A stretch of 14,191 nt of DNA, taken from a virus (lineage: Duplodnaviria > Heunggongvirae > Uroviricota > Caudoviricetes). Below the pieces are notes generated by a model. It made no database searches and had not been told where the DNA came from. It saw only the letters and a program-made list of their open reading frames with translations. The stretch lies in the IMG/VR virus record IMGVR_UViG_2529292908_000005. One strand, 5' to 3'. Both the position numbers and the translations under genes were made by a program. This document shows, piece after piece, positions 1,664 to 14,191 of this stretch. Position 1 is the first letter of the stretch. Every line of letters starts with the position of its first letter.

Positions 1664-2236
1664 TCACGGTACTTTTGGTGACGGAGCTGGTGAGGCAGGA
1701 AAATAACGATAAAGGGTGGAAAGGCCAATATCAAATATCAGTGCGATTTGTTTACGGGACTCGCCATTAGCCAGCAAACGGGCGATTTGCTCCCGCTCTT
1801 TCTCTGTCAGTTTCTGAGGTCTGCCGCCATGACGCCCCTGAGCACGGGCAGCAGCAAGACCCGCACGTGTACGTTCAATAATGAGTTCCCGCTCCATTTC
1901 CGCCAGCGCGCCCATTATATGGAAAAAGACACGTCCCATGGGAGTGGATGTATCAATATTGTCCGTAATGCTGCGGAAGTTAACGCCGCGTTGCCGGAGT
2001 TCTTCTGTTAAAAGGACAAGGTGCTGCATACTGCGTCCAAGGCGATCCAGTTTCCAGACCAGCAGGGTATCCCCTGGCCGGAGTCGCTTTAATGCGCGTT
2101 TAAGTCCGGGACGCTCCCTTGTCTTACCGCTTATTCTGTCTTCGAAAAACAGCTCACATCCTGCACATTCCAGCGCATTTCTTTGTAGCGCCGTATTCTG
2201 GTCATTTGTTGACACCCTGATATACCCAATCAGCAT
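1664..2236 (-). CDS. gin: Serine-recombinase DNA invertase (Gin/Pin/Hin/Cin family)
   Basis: 190-aa ORF starting MLIGYIRVSTNDQNT, with catalytic-domain pattern and C-terminal HTH ...LSTLYRYFPAS closely resembling Mu Gin as recalled; AAGGAA SD 5 nt upstream of ATG; start lies 66 bp from the left gix-like site. Confidence 0.95.
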   Translation of the reverse strand: MLIGYIRVSTNDQNTALQRNALECAGCELFFEDRISGKTRERPGLKRALKRLRPGDTLLVWKLDRLGRSMQHLVLLTEELRQRGVNFRSITDNIDTSTPMGRVFFHIMGALAEMERELIIERTRAGLAAARAQGRHGGRPQKLTEKEREQIARLLANGESRKQIALIFDIGLSTLYRYFPASPAPSPKVP

Positions 2237-2301
2237 ACGATTTCCTTATTATAAAAAGCCGGAATTGTCGCATGAGGAATAAAACAGAGTTAATCCTGGC
2301 T

Positions 2302-2327
2302 TTCCTGAAAACCTCGGTTTACGGGAA
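2302..2327. other. gix/hix-like 26-bp invertase crossover site (left)
   Basis: TTCCTGAAAACC|TCGGTTTACGGGAA: two inverted half-sites around a central dinucleotide; right half nearly identical to the Mu gix half-site TCGGTTTACAGGAA as recalled. Confidence 0.8.
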
Positions 2328-2687
2328 ACGGTAAACAGGGCGGCGAATGCTCTGCCATCGGACGGCACCGCCGTTGCCGCGAATAGACTCGCCACCCCAA
2401 GAAATATTAATGGGGTTCCCTTTGACGGGACGCAGGACATAAACATCACTTCTGGTATAACACAGCAGGATGCGGATTCCCGATATATCCAGGATATCAG
2501 GCTGGGAGCAGAGAACAGGCAGGTAATGTACGGTGGGGCATATTACTCTGCGTACGGTAATGTTATGGCAGGCCTGCAGATTGACAGTAAAGTTGATGCT
2601 TCAAAACGATTTTATAGCATTCAGACCCCTGCAAAAATTAGTCGGAGGTACATGGATTACGGTATCTCAGTTATAAATAGTCAGTAA
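2313..2687 (+). CDS. Silent alternative tail-fibre C-terminal cassette (Sv'-like); no start codon of its own
   Basis: Frame open from the left crossover site to TAA 2685-2687, encoding [48 protein letters not shown]...YMDYGISVINSQ. The first ~25 residues repeat the peptide encoded across the right site in the expressed fibre gene, so inversion would fuse this cassette to the constant fibre region. Confidence 0.7.
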   Translation, partial: LGLRETVNRAANALPSDGTAVAANRLATPRNINGVPFDGTQDINITSGITQQDADSRYIQDIRLGAENRQVMYGGAYYSAYGNVMAGLQIDSKVDASKRFYSIQTPAKISRRYMDYGISVINSQ

Positions 2688-2765
2688 ATAATATATTTTA
2701 AAACAGATTTATTTCCAGGAGGATTTTATGGAACTAAAAATATAACCCGTTATTATCCTGAAAAT

Positions 2766-3248
2766 ATGCCATATGGTAATAATGTTCAGTATTTCCAGAG
2801 TGAAGATGGTAAGGATTTCTACGAATCCCTGTCATTATTCACCAAAAAATATAAACTTTGCATAACACCTGACAGCGGCGTTATCTGCTCAATATCACAG
2901 GACGCCTCGGCGCTGTATCCTGCGGGGTTTTCTGTGGTTGAGGTCGATGAACTCCCTGAAGGCACGGATATTTCAGGAAACTGGAAGTTTGATAATGGCA
3001 TAATCTCCCGTATTCCGGTTAACTACGCAAGAAAACTGGAAGCAATGCGCCAGTCATATCTTAATCAGGCATATGAAAAAATTAATGACTGGAGAACGGA
3101 GCTACAACTGGGCACCATCAGCGATGAAGACAGAGCAGCACTTACCCAATGGATGGCATACATCAGTCAGGTGAAGAAAATGGAACTACCCGCCATTAAA
3201 ACAGAAGCTGAATTTAACGCCATTAAATGGCCTGAGCAGCCACAGTAA
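2766..3248 (+). CDS. tfa: Tail-fibre assembly protein (Tfa / Mu U-like chaperone)
   Basis: 160-aa ORF ...YFQSEDGKDFYE...ALYPAGFSVVEVDELPEG...GNWKFDNGIISR...KWPEQPQ, the characteristic Tfa pattern. ATG 2766 has no SD; a stronger start (AGGAGG + ATG 2728) lies upstream in another frame (see findings). Confidence 0.85.
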   Translation: MPYGNNVQYFQSEDGKDFYESLSLFTKKYKLCITPDSGVICSISQDASALYPAGFSVVEVDELPEGTDISGNWKFDNGIISRIPVNYARKLEAMRQSYLNQAYEKINDWRTELQLGTISDEDRAALTQWMAYISQVKKMELPAIKTEAEFNAIKWPEQPQ

Positions 3249-3251
3249 TAA

Positions 3252-3271
3252 AGAAGGCCGGAAGGCCTTCT
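3252..3271. terminator. Hairpin between convergent tfa and fibre genes (probable bidirectional terminator)
   Basis: AGAAGGCC-GGAA-GGCCTTCT: perfect 8-bp GC-rich stem with 4-nt loop, 3 nt after the tfa stop; T-rich run (TTATTACTG) on the minus-strand side. Confidence 0.5.
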
Positions 3272-3385
3272 GAATATCATTATATACTTGCAGCCGTCAC
3301 CCATGCTCCATTTAACAGATACTGCAACGGCCGGTAATACACGCCGCCGACGTTATCTGCCGTATTCTTACCGACATCCTGTACT

Positions 3386-4162
3386 TTAATTCCGGTAAGA
3401 ACATTGCCGCCCCCCCAGATTCAGATCCCAGCTTTCCCATGTTCCGGGCATATGTGCGGTCACCGACCCCAGTCTTATGGCGGTTACTGTTCCTGATGAG
3501 ATAGTGATATCCTGCGTCCCGTCAAAGGGAACACCATTAATTGTGTGGGCATTTGCCAGCCTGTTCGCGGCAACGGCGGTGCCGTCCGATGGCAGGGCAT
3601 TCGCCGCCCTGTTTACCGTTTCCCGTAAACCGACGTTATCGATAAAAGCCCCTTTATCCGGAATGTCTGCGCCGTTCTGCTCCCTGCGCAGGTAACGGTT
3701 ATCACCTTCGCTTTTGCTGTAAACATCCAGATTATTACGGGCGGTTCCCTTATTCTCCAGGTCGGCGAGATTCTGATCCTTCGCCAGGGCATTAACGTCA
3801 CCGGGACCAAGACTGTTTTTTGTGGCAAGCGTCCCCAGACCAAGATAACCACGGGCCAGACGCTGGGCCTCCGCACCGGCATCAGCAATTTCTTTCAGGT
3901 TATTTTTCCGGGAAAAGGCATTCGCAGCGATAATGGCTTTAATGGACAGCGTAAGCTGGTTTAACTGCGCCTTATCCGGCTGAATACTGGCTTCAGCCAG
4001 AATATTCAGCAGTTCGGCCTGGAGAATATTCAGCCAGTCCTGACCAATCCAGCTGATACCTTTTTGTCCGTCACCTTCGGTAAACCAGGTGGTGGTATTA
4101 CTCTGCGCCGGTGCCAGCGCAGGCATATTCGCCACGCCGGAATTATTATCAACATGAAACAT
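3386..4162 (-). CDS. Tail fibre protein (Mu S / P2 H-like): constant N-terminal part plus variable C-terminus inside the invertible segment; C-terminus probably truncated by a frameshift
   Basis: 258-aa ORF with ...[48 protein letters not shown]... crossing the right gix-like site; ATG overlaps the upstream gene stop (TAATG). A C7 tract at 3410-3416 is followed by a stop 8 codons later, while the -1 frame stays open to 3280. Confidence 0.85.
3620..3645. other. gix/hix-like 26-bp invertase crossover site (right, inverted)
   Basis: Reverse complement reads TTATCGATAACG|TCGGTTTACGGGAA; same TCGGTTTACGGGAA half-site as the left site and TTATC...AAC outer half as in Mu gix as recalled; lies inside the fibre coding sequence (encodes FIDNVGLRE). 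Confidence 0.8.
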
Positions 4163-4722
4163 TAAATAGTCTCCTCTTCATGGCTGTTTGCATACACGTA
4201 AATAAACGTCTGCCATGCAGGCTTATAACGGTTCAGAATACATTCCAGCGCACCGCCTTCATAAATACGCAGCGGCGTGAGAATATCATCCAGCACATTC
4301 ATATTCCGGTAGCCGGTTTCACTGTTAATCGTGACAATACTGACCCACTGCGAATCCGGTGAGGGCTGAATGTCAATCTGATAACCAAACTCCGCCGCAA
4401 ACCGGATATAAAATTCACGGTTCAGCGAGGGCTTCATCCGGTATTTATTTCCGGCATAACGCTGTCGCTCCGTGAGGGTGGCTCCGGCCATATCACACTC
4501 GGGAAGCCCGAGATAACGCTCCCAGTCTTCCAGCAGCAGGCGCGACGTGTCAGGGAAACGCTCGGCAAGCAGCTGTTTACCCGTCCAGGATACACGCGCT
4601 GTCGAATGACTGAGGCCCAGACATAATGATGCCAGTACGGATGACGGACGCTTGTCCCATGCCAGCCCGTCAGGCAGTAACTGCAACAGGGCGCGCTGAT
4701 GCGGGGTCAGGGTTACAGCCAT
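4162..4722 (-). CDS. Phage tail protein, DUF2313 / Mu gp48 / YmfQ-like
   Basis: 186-aa ORF in the conserved slot between baseplate J and tail fibre; start overlaps the J stop region and its stop overlaps the fibre start; composition and position match the gp48/YmfQ family as recalled. Confidence 0.75.
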
Positions 4723-5795
4723 GTGATTTCTCCTACCGTCAGCAGCTCACTGTCTCCCGCCTGAACTGACGTCAGCGGACTGCGCACTTCAAAATCCTCC
4801 AGATTTTTCACCCCTGCCACCGCCCGCCAGAAAGACGACGGCAGAACCAGACCGCCGGGCCGGGATTCGTTATACAACAGGTCGGTCAGCGCCTGTTTTA
4901 CGGCCGCCTGATTCTCCGGTGTTTTCGGGATGATCCTGATGCTGAAGGGCACCGGCTTATTGGTCAGTTTAAACACGGTCACCGTCGGCCCCAGAGGCTG
5001 TCCGACAGGCTGGCCGGTCGCCGGATCATCATGACTGCGGATATAATCCGCCACCCGCTGAACATCACCGTCACCGGGGAAAATATCCGGGTTATTATCC
5101 TGAACAAACGTTACCCCCACGCTGCCCGCCTGCGGCCATTCCGGGCGGCACCATGCCCGCGTCACGCCCGGCACTTCACGCGCCCAGCGTTCAAAATCAT
5201 ACTGCGTGCCGCCGGACGGTGGATTCTGCACCCGGAAAACCAGACGGGAAAGCAGCTCCGGCACGGTTTCCACATCCGCACCACCGGTGATCCCCGTTCC
5301 GGTCACCGTGGACGTCTGGTTGATCCCCGCCTGCGGTGTGATAAATGTCAGTTTTGTCCCTGCCGGGGCATTCCCCGCACGACCGGCACTTTCGGCTTCC
5401 ACACTGACATTCAGCGTACCGGCCTTACCGGTCAGGGAGGTGGTGATACGGTAAACCACGCCATCACTTCGCTGGAGAAGCACACCTTCCTTGATCCCCG
5501 CATCCGTGGTCAGCATCAGCTGAACCGGCCCGTCCCCCCGAGAGGCAGGCTTACGCATGACGCCCCAGAATGCACAGTGTTTCAGCAGTTCGGCTTCATC
5601 GGCTTCGGTCGGGATGATCTGACGCGCAATCCAGGCCAGATGCTCATGCTCCTGAGCAGATAACCCTGCCTGAGCGTAAGCAATGGCATTCAGGGTGGTT
5701 TCATTCACACCCGGCTGCGAGCCGGGCAGGCGCTGGCTGATATCCTGCTGTGTCTGCGTGATTAACTGTGCCAGCGGTAAAGGCTGATAAGGCAT
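4713..5795 (-). CDS. Baseplate J-like protein (Mu gp47 / P2 gpJ family)
   Basis: ORF-track frame 4713..5837 starts at TTG; a better start is ATG 5793-5795 (MPYQPLPLAQ...) with a GGG-containing SD. Translation shows the J-family layout (...ADEAELLKH.AFWGV.RK.A..A.G...GGADVE...) recalled from P2 J. Confidence 0.85.
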   Translation of the reverse strand: MPYQPLPLAQLITQTQQDISQRLPGSQPGVNETTLNAIAYAQAGLSAQEHEHLAWIARQIIPTEADEAELLKHCAFWGVMRKPASRGDGPVQLMLTTDAGIKEGVLLQRSDGVVYRITTSLTGKAGTLNVSVEAESAGRAGNAPAGTKLTFITPQAGINQTSTVTGTGITGGADVETVPELLSRLVFRVQNPPSGGTQYDFERWAREVPGVTRAWCRPEWPQAGSVGVTFVQDNNPDIFPGDGDVQRVADYIRSHDDPATGQPVGQPLGPTVTVFKLTNKPVPFSIRIIPKTPENQAAVKQALTDLLYNESRPGGLVLPSSFWRAVAGVKNLEDFEVRSPLTSVQAGDSELLTVGEITWL

Positions 5796-5954
5796 TAACC
5801 CTGTTCGATAAGGGGCTGATTTCCCGTGAGGAGGCAATACATATTATCAATCTCGCTCAAAAAAACTCTACCCCGGAAAATGCAGAAGATATCCAGGATG
5901 GCTCATATATTAATACCGACTGGCATTTCGACAATCTCCGGGCCTGTATGGGGA

Positions 5955-6242
5955 TTACCGCTGAAAAAGATTAAAAATTTTTGCATAATGTTCAGATGTA
6001 AGAATTGCTGAACCATCAACACCGAGCCTGCGGCGAACGTATTCCTCGCGGGCTATTTTATTATCCAGAGATACAGCATCCTTAATCAGGTTAATCTCCC
6101 GCTCCATTATCAAAAGGGCTTCTCTGGCTGCAAGATTTTCTTTTATCGCATATTCGATAATGTCCCGCATACGTTCAAGCATGCCGATTTTAGCCAGTTC
6201 TTCGTCGATAGATTTAGGCGCAAATTTGATTTCTTTTTCCAT
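5955..6242 (-). CDS. Hypothetical protein, predicted all-helical, encoded in AT-rich DNA
   Basis: ORF-track 5955..6257 (GTG start); preferred start ATG 6240-6242 (MEKEIKF...) with GAGGA SD 8 nt upstream, 1 nt after the stop of the upstream zinc-ribbon ORF; markedly lower GC than neighbours. Confidence 0.5.
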   Translation of the reverse strand: MEKEIKFAPKSIDEELAKIGMLERMRDIIEYAIKENLAAREALLIMEREINLIKDAVSLDNKIAREEYVRRRLGVDGSAILTSEHYAKIFNLFQR

Positions 6243-6243
6243 A

Positions 6244-6387
6244 TTATTCATCCTCACAATTTATACATGCAGTGTCGTCGCCCATATCGCAGTGGTTACA
6301 TTTTATCTCACCACAATGTGGGCACTCTTTCAGATACTCCGGGTCCTCATTTCCACAGGTGGGACATTCAACAATTTGCTCATCCAT
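6244..6387 (-). CDS. Small 4xCxxC zinc-ribbon protein (47 aa), not in the ORF track
   Basis: ATG 6385-6387 to TAA 6244-6246 translates MDEQIVECPTCGNEDPEYLKECPHCGEIKCNHCDMGDDTACINCEDE: four CxxC pairs in 47 residues; AGGGGA SD 7 nt upstream; start overlaps the stop of ORF 6380..6712 (ATGGATGA). Confidence 0.5.
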   Translation of the reverse strand: MDEQIVECPTCGNEDPEYLKECPHCGEIKCNHCDMGDDTACINCEDE

Positions 6388-6712
6388 TATGTATCCCCTG
6401 TAATTCCGGCAAGGCCGAAAGATGGCACCAGTGCGTCACCTGTCCGTCCTCATCTTCAAGGCAGGCTCCGGTTTCTTCATCAATAAAAAAGCCTTCATAC
6501 CCCATATGGCCGATGCGCAGTTCCTGTTGGTCACCATACTGAACAATCAGCACGACAGCCTCCATATCAGGCGGAAATGCGTCATCCAGTGAATGCCAGG
6601 GATAACCGCGCAAATCCCCGAAATAAACGCCGGTCAGCGTTCCGCCACAGAGCGGCATTCCGGCGGCACACACAAGAGGTTCATCTGATTCAACAAATAA
6701 GGTCGTTATCAT
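6380..6712 (-). CDS. Hypothetical protein (110 aa)
   Basis: ORF with ATGA start/stop overlap to the upstream gene at 6709-6712; acidic C-terminal half; no family recognised. Confidence 0.55.
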   Translation of the reverse strand: MITTLFVESDEPLVCAAGMPLCGGTLTGVYFGDLRGYPWHSLDDAFPPDMEAVVLIVQYGDQQELRIGHMGYEGFFIDEETGACLEDEDGQVTHWCHLSALPELQGIHNG

Positions 6713-7260
6713 GGCGTTAACTCCCGTAATACAGCGTCCTCGGCAGTCCGGCGACGGTAATAAACTGCGTGAGCAGAATGTTCAGATATTCCAAACTTTT
6801 CGCCAATTTCCCGGAATGACAGACGGCGTGGGTAATCGGAATCACGCAGCGCACGTATAAGACGTACATCATCATCAGATATGCGCGTGCCGGGGCGTAA
6901 CTCTCCGCACTTTGTTAATCCAGCACCAATCATTCCTGCCCGACATCTGACAGAATCTTTATTACGTCCGAGATATTCTCCCATTTGCTGGCAGGTCATT
7001 GTTCTGGCATTTTTTCGAATAAACTTATCTTCATCAGGTGTAAATCTTGGGTGTTTATATTTCAGTAACTCCGGGTATGAACTGCGCAATACACCAGTCC
7101 GGTTATATACAGCCCAGACAGTTCTTTTTATTCTGGCAGCAATATCCTTAACCGGGGTGGATGAATAAAGCGCAATCAGTAGCGCATCTTCTTCAGGTGT
7201 CCACGCGCGGACATGAGCGGGTGTACGACCTTTTCGCCCCATGGGTTGTAATTTCATCAT
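6709..7260 (-). CDS. Putative DNA-binding protein with tandem Myb/SANT-like HTH repeats
   Basis: 183 aa; repeats ...RAWTPEEDALLIALYS...IAARIKRTVWAVYNRTGVL and ...RFTPDEDKFIRKNARTMTCQQMGEYLGRNKDSVRCRA, plus a third weaker HTH-like segment; strong AGGGGGTGA SD; start 3 nt after the upstream stop. Confidence 0.6.
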   Translation of the reverse strand: MMKLQPMGRKGRTPAHVRAWTPEEDALLIALYSSTPVKDIAARIKRTVWAVYNRTGVLRSSYPELLKYKHPRFTPDEDKFIRKNARTMTCQQMGEYLGRNKDSVRCRAGMIGAGLTKCGELRPGTRISDDDVRLIRALRDSDYPRRLSFREIGEKFGISEHSAHAVYYRRRTAEDAVLRELTP

Positions 7261-7263
7261 GCA

Positions 7264-7779
7264 TCACCCCCTGACTCGCTTTTCAGCAGCATAAAACTCA
7301 TCAGACAGTATTTCGGTCATTTTCTGTTTTGCGGGTTTTACGCCGCACTGAAGGTAAATCACATCGTCAACGCAGAACCACTTCACAGGGCCAAACAGGA
7401 TTGCCGAGAAATCAATACCCAGCCAGAACAACAGCGCATCGGTTCTGGCATACGTGACGGGTGAATATTCACGCCACAGACTGTTCAGTTCATCAGAGGC
7501 AACACGCAGGGTTTTAGGGATACGTGATGTGCGCGGTGTGCAGCTCCAGCCATTCGACGCAGTCGGTTTTCGCCATAAGTCGCGATGAAAAGGATATTTG
7601 TCCTCCGTAAAACGCAGTCCCTTAAAGCAAAATCCACTGATACCGGATACAAATACCGACCGGCACGCAACATTCAGCACGGCCTCAAGGCGTTTTGCCT
7701 CATCCTTAACTTTCTGGCAGTCCTGCTGGTATTTTTGCCACGCAGCCAGCGCGGAAGGGTTTGATGTTTTAAAGAACAT
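7264..7779 (-). CDS. Hypothetical early-region protein (171 aa)
   Basis: ORF whose ATG shares a nucleotide with the upstream stop (TAATG at 7777-7781); no family recognised. Confidence 0.55.
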   Translation of the reverse strand: MFFKTSNPSALAAWQKYQQDCQKVKDEAKRLEAVLNVACRSVFVSGISGFCFKGLRFTEDKYPFHRDLWRKPTASNGWSCTPRTSRIPKTLRVASDELNSLWREYSPVTYARTDALLFWLGIDFSAILFGPVKWFCVDDVIYLQCGVKPAKQKMTEILSDEFYAAEKRVRG

Positions 7780-8312
7780 TACGCCACCTCCGCAGATATC
7801 CCGGCAGGCGCTGCTGTCCGGTCAACAATCAGGTAGCGCAGAACATGTTCAGTGATATTCCAGCCGCTTAAACCGCAGATAATGACGCCCAGGCGTATGT
7901 CGATATACGCCATCACAAACTGGGGCACGCCTTCTTTCATGGCCTGCTCATCAACTTCAGCCACCACATAAACGGTTTCACAGGTCAGAACGCCCTGAGC
8001 AAATTCCCACGCCATCGACGGAATATCATGCCCCTCAATCCATGGCAGGGATTTTCTGAAGCCGCACCACTGAACATCATCAGCCGCAGATTCCTGGCTG
8101 CATTTGCGACGAACCGGCTGCACCGGGCGGGGGCGCGGAATATCATAAAAACCGTTACATTCCGTCAGCACGCCTGCATCAACCGCATCACGCAGAAAAT
8201 AAACCATGGAGGATGGCGGCATATTCATTTTTTCAGCCAGTACACCGCAGGTCAGGCGGCCATAAATACGCAGCCAGTTTTTAACCCCTTCAAGCACTTT
8301 TGCATCAATCAT
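7779..8312 (-). CDS. Hypothetical early-region protein (177 aa)
   Basis: ORF with GGGGAAA SD 7 nt upstream of ATG 8310-8312; first gene after the 145-bp AT-rich gap downstream of gam; no family recognised. Confidence 0.55.
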   Translation of the reverse strand: MIDAKVLEGVKNWLRIYGRLTCGVLAEKMNMPPSSMVYFLRDAVDAGVLTECNGFYDIPRPRPVQPVRRKCSQESAADDVQWCGFRKSLPWIEGHDIPSMAWEFAQGVLTCETVYVVAEVDEQAMKEGVPQFVMAYIDIRLGVIICGLSGWNITEHVLRYLIVDRTAAPAGISAEVA

Positions 8313-8457
8313 GATTTATTTCCCCACCACATTATTAATGACGATATAAACGTATTTCATATTTCTTAACCCTTATTTTCTGTTTTCAGGCGCAAGCAGT
8401 CCCCTGACGCGAGCGCCATAATTAAAATGAAGTGATATTTAATTGATTAATGCGGTG

Positions 8458-8988
8458 TTATTTATTCAGTCCGGCGTCCTGTTCAAAAGGCTCGACATAA
8501 AAACTTTCAGCGCCTTTATTCACCTTGATACCGGCAATGCCTTTCACAGCATCCGGCTCCGCCAGGACGGCTTCCTTGTTCACTTCCTCTTTCGTGCGGA
8601 TGAAACGCTCAAGCCCCATACGGCGCAGCATTTCAATCACACCTTCCACATCACGGCTGACGCTGCATGATGGCGTTCCCAGCCGCCATGACACCGTTCC
8701 GGTGGTCAGATTGGCTGTTTTGGTTTTGCCGCCGTTCGTCAGCTCATCACGGTTGGTTTTGCACCAGTCCTGAATCCCTTTAAAAAGCACTTTGATTTGC
8801 TTTTTAAGATTTTCAATCTGCGGCGTATAACGGGCGGTGATTTCTGCCACTTCGTCATTCATCGCCGTTTCCAGGCGCAGCGCCTCTCGCTGAATATCTC
8901 CCAGGGTGCGGATATCACGGCTGACTTCTTCCCGGGTCTGCGGTGCCGCCTCGGCTGCGGCCTTTAATTTTGTAACGCGTTTAGCCAT
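8458..8988 (-). CDS. gam: Gam-like host-nuclease inhibitor (Mu Gam family, DNA-end binding)
   Basis: 176-aa ORF MAK...DIRTLGDIQREALRLETAMNDEVAEI...DWCKTNRDELTNGGKTKTANLTTGTVSWR...ERFIRTKEEVNKEAVL...EPFEQDAG, co-linear with Mu Gam as recalled; AGGA SD. Confidence 0.9.
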   Translation of the reverse strand: MAKRVTKLKAAAEAAPQTREEVSRDIRTLGDIQREALRLETAMNDEVAEITARYTPQIENLKKQIKVLFKGIQDWCKTNRDELTNGGKTKTANLTTGTVSWRLGTPSCSVSRDVEGVIEMLRRMGLERFIRTKEEVNKEAVLAEPDAVKGIAGIKVNKGAESFYVEPFEQDAGLNK

Positions 8989-8999
8989 TTTGTTTTTCC

Positions 9000-9293
9000 T
9001 TATTGCAGTGTGCCTGATGCTTTATGCACGCGGTGGCGTTTAATGATGGCATCCGCTCCAAAAGACTGTGCAGATGCCTGAAATTCCGCTGAGAGAAACT
9101 GAATAATTGCAGGACTGTGATACTGGAGAATACTTGCATAAACGTCACAGAGTGACGTCGGCCTGTTATCCGTATCACGTTCTGTTTTTACATCCACACC
9201 AATCTTTTCATGCACTTCAACACTGTCATTGCCTGCCGGTTTTTCGTCATGCGAAACATGCTCAAATTCAAAAATAACGCGTACTTTGCTCAT
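9000..9293 (-). CDS. Hypothetical small early protein (paralogue 1 of a tandem pair)
   Basis: ORF-track 9000..9320; preferred start ATG 9291-9293 (MSKVRVIFEFEHV...) with GGGG SD, 4 nt after the upstream gene stop; N-terminus parallels the upstream gene (MSKVVRIIFEYKE...). Confidence 0.55.
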   Translation of the reverse strand: MSKVRVIFEFEHVSHDEKPAGNDSVEVHEKIGVDVKTERDTDNRPTSLCDVYASILQYHSPAIIQFLSAEFQASAQSFGADAIIKRHRVHKASGTLQ

Positions 9294-9297
9294 GGAA

Positions 9298-9570
9298 TTA
9301 CCCCTGCTGATTAAATTCATTACCGTTAATAACCCCGGAAGCCATGCCTCTGTCTTTCATGAATGCACTGGCTTTCATTGCCACAAACTCTGCGAAGTTT
9401 CTGCTTTCTGCCAGCATAACCACCCCAAAAATCATGGCGGGTCCATTATCTTTCTTCTTTATTCCGGTTGAACGTATATCCAGACTTACCCCTCTGTGCG
9501 TGCTGCCATCAGAGTTTTTGCAGATAACATCTTCCTTGTATTCGAAAATAATGCGTACGACTTTACTCAT
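9298..9570 (-). CDS. Hypothetical small early protein (paralogue 2 of a tandem pair)
   Basis: 90-aa ORF MSKVVRIIFEYKEDV...; 4-nt start/stop overlap with the upstream gene. Confidence 0.55.
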   Translation of the reverse strand: MSKVVRIIFEYKEDVICKNSDGSTHRGVSLDIRSTGIKKKDNGPAMIFGVVMLAESRNFAEFVAMKASAFMKDRGMASGVINGNEFNQQG

Positions 9571-9848
9571 CCTCTGGTCCTCGTTCTGTTTGGATAACTG
9601 ACCCGGCGTCTAACCTCACGGCAGAACCGAATCATGGCATTAAAGGCTTCTTCCTCCGTCACCGCTTCCGGTATCCCAGGAACCAGTAGCTGTTCCTGTT
9701 CATCGCGTCCATGACGCGCCATAACCTCAATCACATGCCGTACCGTGGCAGGCTTTCCGGCAACTATCGGCAATGCACCTTCCGGCAGGACGTAACCAAA
9801 CTCAATAAGACCACTCGACCACGCCCATGCAATGAGATTTCGTTTCAC
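9567..9848 (-). CDS. Hypothetical small early protein (93 aa)
   Basis: ORF packed between neighbours in the B-to-gam interval; no family recognised. Confidence 0.5.
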   Translation of the reverse strand: MKRNLIAWAWSSGLIEFGYVLPEGALPIVAGKPATVRHVIEVMARHGRDEQEQLLVPGIPEAVTEEEAFNAMIRFCREVRRRVSYPNRTRTRG

Positions 9849-9849
9849 C

Positions 9850-10116
9850 TCACACCTCCCAGTAAACCGTGCAGCCGCTGATGCGGGTGGCCTTCACACG
9901 GCGGCGCAGGCCGTTGGTCTGTATGGTGATTTCAATTTCACCGGTTCCCTGCACGTTGCCTACCGGCGGCGTGGTTTTCAGTGCAAAACGTTGCGGATAG
10001 CGCTTACTGCGTTCCAGTACCGCACCGGCAAGTTCGGTCAGACGGCGCGCGCTGTTCAGGGAGTCGAATAAATTCATTTTGTTACCGCAGGATTGCATAT
10101 TCATATAACACCTCAT
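9850..10116 (-). CDS. Hypothetical small early protein (start ambiguous: ATG at 10116, 10104, 10098 or 10077)
   Basis: ORF directly following the upstream stop (TAA ATG); several in-frame ATGs, GAGGTG SD-like element before 10104/10098; sits where kil-type genes lie in Mu, but no sequence recognition. Confidence 0.45.
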   Translation of the reverse strand: MRCYMNMQSCGNKMNLFDSLNSARRLTELAGAVLERSKRYPQRFALKTTPPVGNVQGTGEIEITIQTNGLRRRVKATRISGCTVYWEV

Positions 10117-10338
10117 TTAGCTGACTTGTTTCGCACCAACAGAACGGCATATTCCGCTGTAAACTTCTGTCGCACCTTCGCGATCAAGTCCGGCAGATAT
10201 CACCATTCGTGTGCGGTCATTAAATTCAAAAAGTAAATCGCCACATTCTTTATTTTCGGCCAGTGAAATCACCTTCACGTTATCGAAATTAACCAGGTAA
10301 AAGCGTCCGTAAATATCAGGAATATTAAATACCGCCAT
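10117..10338 (-). CDS. Hypothetical small early protein (73 aa)
   Basis: ORF-track 10117..10344 (GTG); ATG 10336-10338 with AGGTG SD 5 nt upstream is preferred; begins 2 nt after the B stop. Confidence 0.5.
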   Translation of the reverse strand: MAVFNIPDIYGRFYLVNFDNVKVISLAENKECGDLLFEFNDRTRMVISAGLDREGATEVYSGICRSVGAKQVS

Positions 10339-10340
10339 AA

Positions 10341-11273
10341 TCACACCTGTGAGAGTAATTCAGGGTTGGTATAAACCTCTTTAAAGGCCGCATTAATATG
10401 TTTTTCTGTCAGCGCCGCGCCTTCACCGCTGGCGGTGAGCCACGCCTGGTTAAGCGTATGTGTCAGAACGCGTAACGCTCCCGGCTTTTCAGCGATAGCC
10501 TGCATGACGGCCAGCTCGGCCTCACCACTGATACCCCATGCCCTGGCAATGGCCAGCACATCCGCCTTTTTGGCCTTGCGAAGTTGTTTTGTACGGGCAA
10601 GACGGCTGAACAGGCGCGATAAATCATCAAAGGCGCGGCGTCCACCTTTAAACAATCCGCGCGGGTTACCAATAAGCACCATCCCGATCCCCGTGGCGTC
10701 CTGAATTGCCCGGAGTTGCTCCAGACCGTCAATACCAAGATGATCCGCCTCATCCACAATCACCAGTCCACGCGTTCCCGTCAGGCGACGGCGGATGGCG
10801 CGGGATAATGCCCCTTTGTTCGCGCGGGTGTAATCAATCCCCAGCGCATCGGCCAGCTCCAGCAGACACTCCGTGACGCTGGAGTGCGCGGGTGACAGGG
10901 TGATCATCCAGGTGTTTGGTTGCTCCTGGCAGTAATTACGGGCAGTGGCCGTTTTACCCACACCCGGTACGCCCACAATAACGTTAATACAGCCCATCAG
11001 GCGAACCGCCTGAAACAGTGCGCGCAGCTCCTGGACTGTCTGAGTTTCCACAAACTGCGGCGGTTCCGGCAGTGCGCTTTGTTTATTCCAGTTCTCATAC
11101 CAGGAGCGCAGGGAAGCAGCCACAGCGGCGTTATCGCCTTTATATTTCCCCTTGCGGAAAGCCGATAATGTGCCGTCGGAAATTCCCGCCTCTCTGGCGA
11201 TGGCATACTGCGTCAGCACGCCGCCATCAATAAGTTCATCAATGGTCTTGATTACATCGTTTATATCGGTCAT
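10341..11273 (-). CDS. B: MuB-like transposition target-capture protein (AAA+ ATPase)
   Basis: 310-aa ORF with Walker A VGVPGVGKTATARNY, ...LVIVDEADHLG..., N-terminal HTH-like region, and co-linearity with Mu B as recalled (...GDN..V...L..W...PEPP.FVETQTV...KPGALR.L...); GAGG SD; directly downstream of the transposase. Confidence 0.92.
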   Translation of the reverse strand: MTDINDVIKTIDELIDGGVLTQYAIAREAGISDGTLSAFRKGKYKGDNAAVAASLRSWYENWNKQSALPEPPQFVETQTVQELRALFQAVRLMGCINVIVGVPGVGKTATARNYCQEQPNTWMITLSPAHSSVTECLLELADALGIDYTRANKGALSRAIRRRLTGTRGLVIVDEADHLGIDGLEQLRAIQDATGIGMVLIGNPRGLFKGGRRAFDDLSRLFSRLARTKQLRKAKKADVLAIARAWGISGEAELAVMQAIAEKPGALRVLTHTLNQAWLTASGEGAALTEKHINAAFKEVYTNPELLSQV

Positions 11274-11312
11274 ATTATTACCTCGCGTTTGTGTAGTTCC
11301 TTTGTTTAATCA

Positions 11313-11348
11313 AATAACCTGAGTCGCCGCTCGGGTTATTTTTTATTT
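11313..11348 (+). terminator. Stem-loop plus T-tract in the A-B intergenic region; reads as an intrinsic terminator on the strand antisense to A/B
   Basis: AATAACCTGAG-TCGCCG-CTCGGGTTATT (11-bp stem with one G-U pair on the plus-strand RNA) followed by TTTTATTT; on the sense (minus) strand the stem has a C-A mismatch and a weaker U-tract. Confidence 0.35.
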
Positions 11349-13438
11349 CAGGCCAGAGGGTCATTTTCTTTTAATTTCGCTTCAAGCAGCTGCAATCCCC
11401 GCTGGAAATTACGCTCGTATTCTTCATCAGGTTCATCGTCAGCGACCGGTTGCTGAACGATCACCGTATTACCCACAGGGCGGTATATATTTTCCAGCCA
11501 CGGCTCCTGTGGCTTGTGCTCCAGCACGTTGACAATCTCATCCTCGGCATCACGGATTTTTTCCTCTGCGCGTTTACGCATGCCTTTAAGGCGCTGCTGC
11601 TGTTTGTGGTATTCCGCGCTGACCGGGAAGGCTTCGCGTTTATTGCCGTCCCATACCGCCTCGCAAATCACGCTGCCATCCGGGCGACGTACGGTAATTC
11701 GTTCGGCATCATGAATGTCATAGCTGATAAGCACCTTACGACCATGCTCGTCACGCAGCTCGGGCGCGTAGTAAATATTATTCAGCCAGCGTATTTCACA
11801 GCGTCTTACAGGGCGTTCCACCATCGGCCGGAACATATCCCGCAGCTCAACATCGGACAGCCATTCAATTTCCGTGTCCTCTTCCGCCAGGCGTTTTTTT
11901 CTGAACTCCGCCGGGCTGTAATGCTTGCCGTTCGGCTTCACCGGTAATTCATCGTGCGGCCGGTTGTTGTACCACTCAACACCATCACGAATGGCATCAA
12001 TCAGTTCAGCCCAGGACGGTAAATCACGCATCGCTGACTGCTGCCGGGCGTTCAGCCGTTTGCCCTGTTGCAGGGCAGTAAATGCCGAGCGTAAATCGCG
12101 GTTGGTTTTGCGTAACGTCTCGCGATCTGCACCTTTCCCGAAATAGGTGCGGTATTTACGGGCTATGCGCATCGGTAATGTGCGGTTAAGCCGTTCGATA
12201 ATGCCTCGTCCCTGCGGATTACCGGCAATCCCGGTCGGGTGATTAATCCCCAGTCGCGGCAGTATCCCCACAACCTCCTTATCCAGGATGTCGGCGGTTT
12301 CCCCGGAGCCGTTATCCGAGTAATACAGAAACGGTTTGCCGTGATGGCGAATGCCGTGCTGTATGGCACCGGCTACGGCGAAAACATTTTCAGCCAGGTC
12401 AAGGCTCCAGCCCACCACAAAGCGCGTGCCACCGTCGATAACAAAGGTCACTTCCGGTGCAAATGGCCGACCGTGAACCGGGTGTGCGCATTTCAGCTTC
12501 ATGCCGTGACCGTCACCAATCCAGACATAATTCACCGGCATTTTTGACCAGTCGCGGCGCGTGAATCCCTCAAGCTGGCGGTATTCACTGCCGGTCACCC
12601 GGCCTTTTTGTTTCACCACTTCCGGCAGTTTCTTCATTGCGCGGCGAATGGTGTCATAAGACGGCATGATATCGAGCATATAAGGCTCATCAGCGTGCCG
12701 GTGCTGCCATTCAGCAACAAAATCCTCGTAAGCCTCGGTCATTGGTCGGCCGTTTGACTGGCGATACTGCGCCAGAAATTCGGGCAGCCAGTTAATATCT
12801 TCGGCTTTTATTTCCTGGCGCTTACCCGGTGCCAGTAAAAGCAGGCGTTCAGCGGCGTTCTGCGCCTTGTTAAAGGCCGCAATCCAGCGTTTCAGCGTGA
12901 TTTCACTTAACGCGCGGCTGTTTCCCTTTTTGGCGTTCGCCGTCTCAACCATTGCCACAATGCGCTCGTCCAGCTGCGAACGTGCCAGGTTGTCAACGAT
13001 AAACCGGATAGCCTTCGCACAGCTGAAACCAGGTTGTTGCGCGACTTTCAGCACCTCGCTGACGATCGCGATTCGTGCATCAGCCACCTGGCGCTGGTTT
13101 TCAGTCAGGGCATTAAGGCGTTCAACCATCAGTTGTGGTGATCCGCGATATGCCTCCACCGCATCAACCACGGCAGGCGAGCGTCTGGCCTTTGTCACCA
13201 CTGGAGCCGGTGATTCATCGACTTTTTGAGTCATCAGTTGCAGGGCGTAGCGTTCACGTAATGCCTGCTGCGTCACTTCAGGTAAACAGTCGATGCTGTA
13301 TTCAGTTGCTTTAGAGCCTGAGCGACGACGGGAACAACAGCTTTTCCCTTGTACGTAACGTTGTAATGCCTGGCGAATACCTTTTGTTGTAGCAGGCATT
13401 CCGGGCGCGCCAATCAGTTCTTTTGCAATGACATACAT
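11348..13438 (-). CDS. A: Mu-type DDE transposase (MuA-like)
   Basis: 696-aa ORF of MuA size, immediately between ner-like and B-like genes; start 1 nt after the ner stop (TGATATG); internal ...YVWIGDGHGMKLKC... core region. Assignment rests mainly on size and conserved ner-A-B synteny. Confidence 0.9.
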   Translation of the reverse strand: MYVIAKELIGAPGMPATTKGIRQALQRYVQGKSCCSRRRSGSKATEYSIDCLPEVTQQALRERYALQLMTQKVDESPAPVVTKARRSPAVVDAVEAYRGSPQLMVERLNALTENQRQVADARIAIVSEVLKVAQQPGFSCAKAIRFIVDNLARSQLDERIVAMVETANAKKGNSRALSEITLKRWIAAFNKAQNAAERLLLLAPGKRQEIKAEDINWLPEFLAQYRQSNGRPMTEAYEDFVAEWQHRHADEPYMLDIMPSYDTIRRAMKKLPEVVKQKGRVTGSEYRQLEGFTRRDWSKMPVNYVWIGDGHGMKLKCAHPVHGRPFAPEVTFVIDGGTRFVVGWSLDLAENVFAVAGAIQHGIRHHGKPFLYYSDNGSGETADILDKEVVGILPRLGINHPTGIAGNPQGRGIIERLNRTLPMRIARKYRTYFGKGADRETLRKTNRDLRSAFTALQQGKRLNARQQSAMRDLPSWAELIDAIRDGVEWYNNRPHDELPVKPNGKHYSPAEFRKKRLAEEDTEIEWLSDVELRDMFRPMVERPVRRCEIRWLNNIYYAPELRDEHGRKVLISYDIHDAERITVRRPDGSVICEAVWDGNKREAFPVSAEYHKQQQRLKGMRKRAEEKIRDAEDEIVNVLEHKPQEPWLENIYRPVGNTVIVQQPVADDEPDEEYERNFQRGLQLLEAKLKENDPLA

Positions 13439-13439
13439 A

Positions 13440-13688
13440 TCATGACGCCTTTCTCATATAGCTCTTAACCTGGTATCGACTGGGCCAGATTTCTTCAGGC
13501 GATACCCCAAGAGCATCAGCAATTATTTGCTGATACGGTCGGCAAGGAGTACGTAATACGCTTTTCAGCGAATCCCTGCTGTAACCAGCCTTTAAAGATA
13601 AAGAGCGCAGTGATAAGCCAGCCATGTGTAAGCGCGCCTTGATGATTTCAGGCGGCCAATCGTGATCTGAAACTTCTCTTCTACTCAT
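13440..13688 (-). CDS. ner: Ner-like DNA-binding regulator (Ner/Nlp family)
   Basis: 82-aa ORF ...DWPPEIIKARL...GLSLRSLSLKAGYSRDSL...QQIIADALGVSPEEIWPSRY..., co-linear with Mu Ner / E. coli Nlp as recalled; first gene of the early operon, divergent from the repressor. Confidence 0.88.
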   Translation of the reverse strand: MSRREVSDHDWPPEIIKARLHMAGLSLRSLSLKAGYSRDSLKSVLRTPCRPYQQIIADALGVSPEEIWPSRYQVKSYMRKAS

Positions 13689-13855
13689 ACTTCCTCTATT
13701 CTAAAAAGTTACCCGCGCGGATATTCGTGCGGATATCTGTACGGGTAAATAATAGAACAAGCAAAAGAACCAAATCAAGGTATTTTGTTCTTTTTATTCT
13801 TTGCGGTGTTTTTGTTATTAATATCAATAAGATAAATAAAAAGGAACCTGAGAGC
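13689..13855. promoter_or_regulatory. Divergent early promoter/operator region between ner and the repressor gene
   Basis: 167-bp AT-rich intergenic region. Direct repeats GCGGATAT at 13717-13724 and 13729-13736 nested in inverted arms TTACCCG (13709-13715) / CGGGTAA (13742-13748). Candidate leftward promoter: -35 TTGATT (13773-13778) and -10 TATTAT (13749-13754), 18-bp spacer. AAGGAA SD for the repressor at 13841-13846. Confidence 0.5.
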
Positions 13856-14191
13856 ATGAACATGAAAAACAGTTCTTTTCTCGACGAAGGAAAAGAACCA
13901 GTGATCGAACGGATTTTTCGTCTTGCAGAGCGTTACAAATCGAGAAGTGAGGCGGCTAGAGCATGGGGAATAAACGTTCAGACATTGCAGAACTACTACA
14001 AAAGGAGAAACAATCAGCCGCCACCACAACCAAGAAAGCACCATCTCCAGAACATTGCAGAAAGAGAACATGTATCTATGGAGTGGCTGGTCAATGGTTA
14101 TGGTGATGAGCCAAGCATGAAAAAAGAACCAATTGAACAAACAAAAAGAACAAAAAACAAAGAATTGATGATAGTGATTCCATCATCATGA
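13856..14191 (+). CDS. Prophage repressor, CI-type HTH (Phage_CI_repr-like); ends at the window edge
   Basis: ORF-track frame 13727..14191; preferred start ATG 13856 (MNMKNSS...) with AAGGAA SD 9 nt upstream; HTH segment ...SRSEAARAWGINVQTLQNYYK... and the ...VSMEWLVNGYG motif typical of CI-type repressor N-domains; divergent from ner-A-B. Confidence 0.7.
   Translation: MNMKNSSFLDEGKEPVIERIFRLAERYKSRSEAARAWGINVQTLQNYYKRRNNQPPPQPRKHHLQNIAEREHVSMEWLVNGYGDEPSMKKEPIEQTKRTKNKELMIVIPSS

Follow-up and report, generated by a model that had tools for sequence, protein, structure and literature searches.

The gene 7 position of Mu-like phages

Variable slots of transposable phages, such as the anti-CRISPR/accessory loci of Pseudomonas Mu-like phages, are occupied by short, fast-evolving and lineage-restricted genes, which are swapped as cassettes between conserved neighbours; several different cassettes are sometimes arranged in a row. 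In phage Mu, both kil and gam act on host proteins. Pe drives transcription of the semi-essential early genes of Mu, for most of which no function is known (PMC3820752). For SfMu, ORF7 was described as identical to its Mu counterpart and less than 50% identical to that of D108 (PMC4406740). Comparison of the gene 7 regions of Mu (locus L001, positions 4784-5047) and D108 (L190, 901-1170) showed that genes 6 and 8 are 96-100% identical at the DNA level, whereas the sequence from approximately codon 11 of gene 7 to the stop codon is 26-50% identical. This sharp drop indicates that gene 7 represents a mosaic cassette, the left edge of which is located just after the N-terminal motif.

A synteny-guided set comprising the Gam-anchored loci of 23 genomes and 80 IMG/VR contigs was compiled, for which gam served as the anchor of the comparisons. 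The gene 7 position in these loci is occupied by a small gene occurring in discrete types, namely the Mu gp7 type (MAKVIIEIKN..., 87 aa), the D108 gp7 type (MAKVIFEFNN...GPHDVMAGIIKSMAPEII..., 89 aa) with a related form starting MAKVIFEFTW..., and a Kluyvera/Enterobacteriaceae form (MAKVIIE[IL]TRDFT..., 83-88 aa). The family is absent from the Mu-like prophages of, among others, Gilliamella, Pseudomonas and Pantoea. In one Pantoea prophage of this kind (L096), gam is preceded by three small tandem ORFs that resemble the family by eye, but similarity was detectable neither among the three nor with family members.

Genetic context of the gene pair

The window analyzed in this study is the IMG/VR record IMGVR_UViG_2529292908_000005, a stretch of 14,191 nucleotides. 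Based on Pfam and PHROG matches, by which MuA, MuB, Kil, Gam and Gp11_C were recognised, it is assigned to the early (Pe) operon of a Mu-like prophage from E. coli, encoded on the minus strand. In the direction of transcription, the operon comprises genes for a Ner-like HTH protein (13440-13688), MuA (11348-13438), MuB (10341-11273), a 75-aa ORF, a Kil-like protein (9850-10116), the small proteins w93 (9567-9848), w90 (9298-9570) and w97 (9000-9293), Gam (8458-8988; Pfam Phage_Mu_Gam, E 5.5e-42; 57% identity to Mu Gam) and a Gp11-like protein (7779-8312; 69% identity to Mu gp11). The genes w90 and w97 are located between kil and gam, a position comparable to that of gene 7 in Mu, D108 and the loci L084 and L086.

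The w90 gene encodes 90 aa and starts with MSKVVRIIFEYKED / MSKVVRIIFEYKEDVICKNSDG, and the w97 gene encodes 97 aa and starts with MSKVRVIFEFEHV / MSKVRVIFEFEHVSHDEK; the complete proteins are MSKVVRIIFEYKEDVICKNSDGSTHRGVSLDIRSTGIKKKDNGPAMIFGVVMLAESRNFAEFVAMKASAFMKDRGMASGVINGNEFNQQG (w90) and MSKVRVIFEFEHVSHDEKPAGNDSVEVHEKIGVDVKTERDTDNRPTSLCDVYASILQYHSPAIIQFLSAEFQASAQSFGADAIIKRHRVHKASGTLQ (w97). Both coding sequences are annotated identically by RefSeq in a 99% identical E. coli genome (WP_000049428.1 for w90 and WP_000049310.1 for w97, each labelled 'hypothetical protein'), whereas the mechanically called ORF of w97 is longer and begins further upstream, at the ATG at 9320. Spacing between the genes is minimal. 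The w93 stop codon and the w90 start codon overlap in the sequence ATGA, a sign of translational coupling in the early operon, and only 4 nt separate the w90 stop from the w97 start and 11 nt the w97 stop from the gam start. A consensus scan for promoter-like and terminator-like sites detected none on the minus strand from 8400 to 10400; the one match on this strand is located downstream of gam (8360-8331). Rfam searches recognised no RNA family across the whole window, and antisense ORFs of the plus strand were without support.

The upstream neighbour w93 (93 aa) belongs to phrog_1518, which carries the label 'host nuclease inhibitor', for which no backing was obtained from Pfam, NCBIfam or PADLOC. 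In L084, a w93 homologue is placed between the gene-7-like gene and gam.

The 2-kb stretch around w90 and w97 was found in 232 of 5426 complete E. coli genomes and also in two Stx-phage records, where it is annotated as 'inserted Mu-like phage'. The prophage represented by the window carries an internal deletion. Its collinearity (98.2%) with a full-length relative from E. coli (L188, NZ_CM128582.1) is limited to positions 5796-13304. Below 5796, the next genes in the window are those for Baseplate_J (4713-5837), Mu Gp48 (4162-4722) and a tail fibre (3386-4162), whereas the relative continues with gp16/GemA, Mor and lysozyme. A Gin-like serine invertase gene (1664-2236, minus strand) adjoins a tail-fibre assembly gene (2766-3248, plus strand), so that positions 1664-3248 look like an invertible, G-segment-like host-range switch. 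At the left (repressor) end, over positions 13304-14191, collinearity with the 99%-related prophage of L188 is lost, which points to another immunity region or another insertion site.

Similarity between w90 and w97

The first-pass annotation had described a tandem pair of divergent paralogues, consisting of adjacent genes of roughly 90 aa in the early region that share similar starts and scattered downstream identities. The ORF list, RefSeq and the dN/dS values given below confirmed that both genes are real, albeit encoded on the minus strand. Their products start with MSKVVRIIFEY (w90) and MSKVRVIFEF (w97), resulting in the consensus MSKV(V)R[IV]IFE[YF], which among 9,789 ORFs of related loci is restricted to the w90 and w97 families. 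The two proteins were aligned by BLASTP with 22% identity over 76 aa (E 6e-4, single comparison), and Smith-Waterman alignment of the whole proteins yielded a z-score of 6.0 and p 2e-4 (5000 shuffles). Moreover, comparison of the family profiles (24 and 8 sequences) by means of hhalign resulted in probabilities of 84-89% (best 88.8%), E-values from 8e-6 to 2.5e-6 and a z-score of 11.7 over column-shuffled controls.

The likeness of the two gene starts is thus beyond chance. A fortuitous resemblance of unrelated small ORFs, or spurious ORFs altogether, would be compatible with the frequency of MSK and MAK starts among bacterial genes and with the lack of significant body similarity reported below; however, the N-terminal match exceeds the shuffled controls, and both ORFs are conserved, evolve under purifying selection and are represented among RefSeq coding sequences and PHROG families. 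Overall, such an explanation is considered highly improbable, and pure chance resemblance is excluded.

Removal of the N-terminal residues changed the outcome. Without the first 13 residues, the Smith-Waterman comparison retained p 0.03, and without the first 12-13 residues the hhalign z-score was 0.2, with 34 of 100 shuffles scoring as well. The correlation of the hydropathy profiles was equalled by 10 of 60 realigned permutations and was therefore not significant; a z-score of 3.4 calculated against circular shifts was discarded, since it was inflated by alignment optimisation and disappeared when permutations were realigned. At the DNA level, the sole repeat between the genes comprises 19 nt (9266-9284 and 9540-9558, 89% identity) encoding VR[VI]IFE, and the sequences upstream of the two genes differ from each other.

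Significant similarity between w90 and w97 is accordingly confined to approximately the first dozen residues (about 12 residues or 19 nt), and significant similarity over most of both proteins, the hallmark of tandem whole-gene paralogues, was not observed. The downstream identities noted in the first-pass annotation are not significant on their own. That annotation had named similarity limited to the first dozen residues as the observation that would speak against paralogy, and the alignments come close to this situation.

An in-situ duplication of one whole gene of about 90 aa, followed by divergence of all but a constrained N-terminus, would nevertheless account for the adjacency, the same orientation and the similar length of the genes. 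It is also in accordance with the residual Smith-Waterman signal, with the similar order of predicted secondary-structure elements and with the N-terminal module, in which w90 is nearer to w97 than either is to the MAKVI[IF]E start of Mu and D108 gp7. The loss of significance upon removal of the first 12-13 residues argues against it. Further evidence on both sides was obtained from the family assignments.

Family assignment of the two proteins

The two proteins were assigned to separate PHROGs. For w90, a full-length match to phrog_4107 was obtained (E 1.7e-54, residues 1-90 of 90), and no match to phrog_2230 was found at E <= 1; w97 matched phrog_2230 (E 6.3e-39, residues 3-97 versus profile positions 1-88 of 89), which also takes in D108 gp7 and Kluyvera/Enterobacteriaceae proteins. 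The w90 family (phrog_4107) is narrow and almost entirely composed of proteins from E. coli prophages; every named member among 42 close homologues of w90 originates from E. coli. Word-indexed searches with w90 and w97 likewise retrieved narrow families only, almost entirely from E. coli.

Comparison of w97 with the D108 gp7 type by hhalign resulted in 97% probability and E 3e-11, and in E 1.4e-7 and z 15.9 when the N-termini were omitted. At the sequence level, w97 is firmly assigned as a full-length homologue of phage D108 gp7, and, as judged from these profiles, D108 gp7 and the Kluyvera proteins are far closer relatives of its body than w90 is.

Placement of w90 proved more difficult. Its hhalign comparison with the D108 type reached E 0.05, and that with the pooled families without the N-terminus z 1.5-1.8. 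In a full-length alignment, residues 5-79 of w90 were in register with the pooled profile of the other families (columns 3-77) at E 1e-5. The match between the w90 body and Mu gp7 was marginal (E 0.01-0.03 over 36 columns, z 3.1, one of 60 shuffles as good), and two of 60 permutations equalled the hydropathy correlation of this pair. At best, the w90 body is marginally homologous to the other types. Between w97 and the Mu gp7 body, hhalign detected no similarity beyond the N-terminus. Mu gp7 itself matched a pooled profile of w97, D108 and Kluyvera sequences with 93% probability (E 2.6e-7); its match to phrog_2230 was weak (E 0.009), and its body alone gave a marginal z-score of 1.9.

Despite these differences, the motif M[AS]KV..I[IF]E[IFY] is located at the very start of a protein of 83-97 aa in w90, w97 and the Mu, D108, Kluyvera and Enterobacteriaceae members. 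Furthermore, a merged profile of w90, w97 and Mu gp7 recognised the syntenic Kluyvera/Enterobacteriaceae genes at E 1e-5 among 1812 ORFs, whereas none of the single-family profiles performed better than E 0.004 on the same genes. This superiority is expected if w90, w97 and Mu gp7 share real family features. When 1.84 billion representatives were searched exhaustively by HMMER with the merged profile, nothing was retrieved apart from the three source families, fragments and a single repetitive ORF of 710 aa, which is a spurious match.

Regarding the duplication of a whole gene in situ, the in-register alignment of w90 with the pooled families is in its favour. Against it stand the separate PHROGs of the two proteins and the finding that the w97 body has much closer relatives in D108 gp7 and the Kluyvera proteins than in w90; given the latter, the duplication would have to predate the radiation of all these phages and to have been followed by reciprocal loss elsewhere. 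It is retained as a tentative, rather unlikely explanation.

Selection acting on the gene pair

Distinct alleles collected from related loci revealed a median dN/dS of approximately 0.29 for w90 (16 alleles) and 0.36 for w97 (23 alleles). Both genes are real and evolve under purifying selection. The first 13 codons represent the most constrained part of both genes. For codons 1-13 of w90 (9532-9570, minus strand; MSKVVRIIFEYKE), which include the repeat copy at 9540-9558, dN was 0.008 and dS 0.38 among the 16 alleles. The corresponding codons of w97 (9255-9293, minus strand; MSKVRVIFEFEHV), which include the copy at 9266-9284, showed a dN of 0.039 and a dS of 0.21, compared to 0.17 and 0.47 for the rest of the gene. 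Low dN accompanied by abundant synonymous change implies that the N-terminal motif is kept at the protein level and is not merely conserved DNA.

Many frameshifted or truncated copies of both genes are present in public assemblies (P0039, P0042, P0051-P0057, P0062 and P0063, as well as L149, positions 2414-2879), which suggests either decay in resident prophages or sequencing errors. In addition, one public E. coli genome encodes a 67-aa in-frame deletion hybrid (P0030) consisting of w90 residues 1-49 and w97 residues 80-97. Its junction is the 'FG' common to both genes, out of homologous register.

Cassette behaviour and copy number

A further mosaic edge was observed in a related locus (L189, GCA_902846645.1, positions 2951-3571), which harbours a diverged w90 allele with 57% identity. 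Its DNA is nearly identical to that of w90 from -50 to +40, with three differences that are all located upstream of the start codon, and diverges thereafter, whereas the adjacent w97 is approximately 93% identical. In the same locus, w93 is absent save for a remnant of its 3' end, and Kil and a Mu gp8-like gene are located upstream instead. The occurrence of a diverged w90 beside a w97 of about 93% identity indicates that the two genes recombine as independent modules.

In accordance with the copy-number check proposed in the first-pass annotation, exactly one w90 and one w97 were found in 41 of 41 contigs of the window's lineage, adjacent and in fixed order. The Mu and D108 types never occurred together in the 29 other Mu-like IMG/VR contigs that contain a gene-7-type gene. 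Two gene-7-type cassettes are present only in this lineage, and they are always adjacent. A lineage with w90 alone or w97 alone was not found.

The mosaic edges just after the motif, in Mu versus D108 as well as in the diverged w90 allele, might also be explained if only the 5' module, i.e. the ribosome-binding context and about 12 codons, were common to both genes and unrelated bodies had been captured behind a reusable start. The restriction of DNA similarity to 19 nt and the lack of significant similarity between the bodies fit such a scenario. However, dS values of 0.38 and 0.21 inside the module show that it is kept as protein and not as a DNA linker, and the upstream sequences of the two genes differ. 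Moreover, the similar length of all body types, the better recognition of independent members by the merged profile than by any single profile and the marginal in-register signals between w90 and Mu gp7 are at odds with unrelated bodies. A common origin of the 5' module alone is consequently considered improbable.

The interpretation preferred here, with moderate confidence, is that w90 and w97 represent two gene-7-type cassettes arranged in tandem and provided with a common 5' module. Both are considered members of a set of proteins of 83-97 aa encoded at the polymorphic 'gene 7' position of Enterobacterales Mu-like phages, in which the N-terminal module M[AS]KV..I[IF]E[IFY] is predicted to form the first strand of a beta-hairpin and is followed by a body of one of several discrete types, namely Mu gp7, D108 gp7, Kluyvera-like or w90. 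The body of w97 is of the D108 gp7 type, and that of w90 is of a type of its own that is marginally nearest to Mu gp7. Long ago, the slot or at least its 5' module may have been duplicated, or a second cassette may have been inserted, and the 5' modules could have stayed alike through strong constraint at the protein level, possibly together with gene conversion. The conserved N-terminal strand may have a shared task, for instance in dimerisation or docking, the variable body may set specificity, and two cassettes may thereby confer two specificities.

An old duplication of the slot is plausible. The old local duplication postulated in the first-pass annotation is likely with respect to the 5' module or the slot, in view of the common module and the same operon slot; for the whole gene it is less likely, as the bodies lack significant similarity. 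Given that w90 is far more distant from the w97 body than D108 gp7 and the Kluyvera proteins are, a common origin of the two bodies would predate the split between the Mu and D108 types; alternatively, the bodies may be separate cassettes that were juxtaposed by recombination.

Predicted structure and function

AlphaFold2 models calculated from the family alignments were of low confidence (mean pLDDT 51.0 and 51.8). The low-confidence models feature an N-terminal beta-hairpin, composed of strands 4-16 and 27-35 in w90 and of strands 4-17 and 26-39 in w97, which is followed by a helix. Structure prediction, which had been suggested as a further check of paralogy, accordingly returned the same hairpin-plus-helix layout for both proteins, yet at these pLDDT values the models provide only weak evidence for a layout common to w90 and w97. 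A Foldseek search of the PDB with the low-confidence w97 model returned nothing with E < 0.5.

Database searches did not point to a particular function. For w90 and w97, no match was obtained in Pfam, NCBIfam or PADLOC, and sequence-profile searches of the PDB yielded chance-level matches only (a PDZ domain, E 0.62; cytochrome bc1 subunit 2, E 0.023). RraB (PF06877) was dismissed as a candidate, since only one D108-type sequence among 11 family members reached 16.9 bits, compared to a cut-off of 23.3, and neither w97 nor w90 matched. Likewise, a ClpX N-terminal recognition motif would fit the N-terminus of w90, but not that of w97 or of the Mu and D108 types.

Both proteins are short, lineage-restricted, cassette-like and subject to relaxed purifying selection. 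By analogy with the rest of the Mu semi-essential region, we infer that w90 and w97 may be dispensable early accessory proteins. Each of them probably binds a host protein and acts stoichiometrically, as would be expected from the neighbouring kil and gam and from how variable early genes of phages generally behave. A more far-reaching proposal, which is regarded as speculative and rather doubtful, is that the gene 7 slot is modular, with the N-terminal strand serving as a docking or oligomerisation handle and as a recombination anchor, while bodies for different host targets or defences are exchanged and stacked. If this proposal held true, the slot would parallel, on the phage side, the cassette swapping of polymorphic toxins, and the lineage studied here would harbour a two-cassette array.

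Comparison with known systems

Existing catalogues list both w90 and w97 as hypothetical phage proteins, and gene 7 polymorphism is known from the literature. Results obtained within this study add the link between w97 and D108 gp7, the location of the gene 7 cassette edge inside the coding region just after the constrained N-terminal motif, and the presence of two such cassettes side by side in a single widespread prophage lineage of E. coli. The value of these findings is modest and descriptive, and on their own they matter little. If the semi-essential early genes of Mu-like phages turned out to be counter-defence or host-takeover factors, the gene 7 slot would be a sensible place for variable specificities.

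The closest described relative of w97 is gp7 of phage D108 (ACV50266.1), which belongs to phrog_2230, the PHROG matched by w97 over its full length, is of similar length and is likewise encoded in the early-operon region between kil and gam. The bodies of both proteins have the landmarks ..P.D..A.I....P.II...E....G..A in common, although overall identity amounts to only about 24%. They differ in the start, which reads MAKVIFEF in D108 and MSKVRVIFEF in w97, and in a 5-residue insertion in the hairpin of w97. Moreover, the D108 gene is single-copy and followed by genes 8 and 9, whereas w97 directly precedes gam.

Gp7 of phage Mu (E6; AAF01086.1; phrog_10252), a hypothetical protein according to GenBank, occupies the same slot as the pair, comprises 87 aa and starts with an N-terminal motif of the type MAKVIIEI. 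Weak in-register similarity connects it to the C-terminal half of w90 (..ES[RQ]...A......K[DN].G). This relationship is marginal (E approximately 0.01), whereas w97 has no similarity to Mu gp7 beyond the N-terminus.

Neither w90 nor w97 is similar in sequence or structure to known anti-defence proteins. The accessory loci of Pseudomonas Mu-like phages are located in the late region, whereas w90 and w97 are part of the early operon. The w90/w97 pair is a case of ordinary mosaicism in phage accessory regions.
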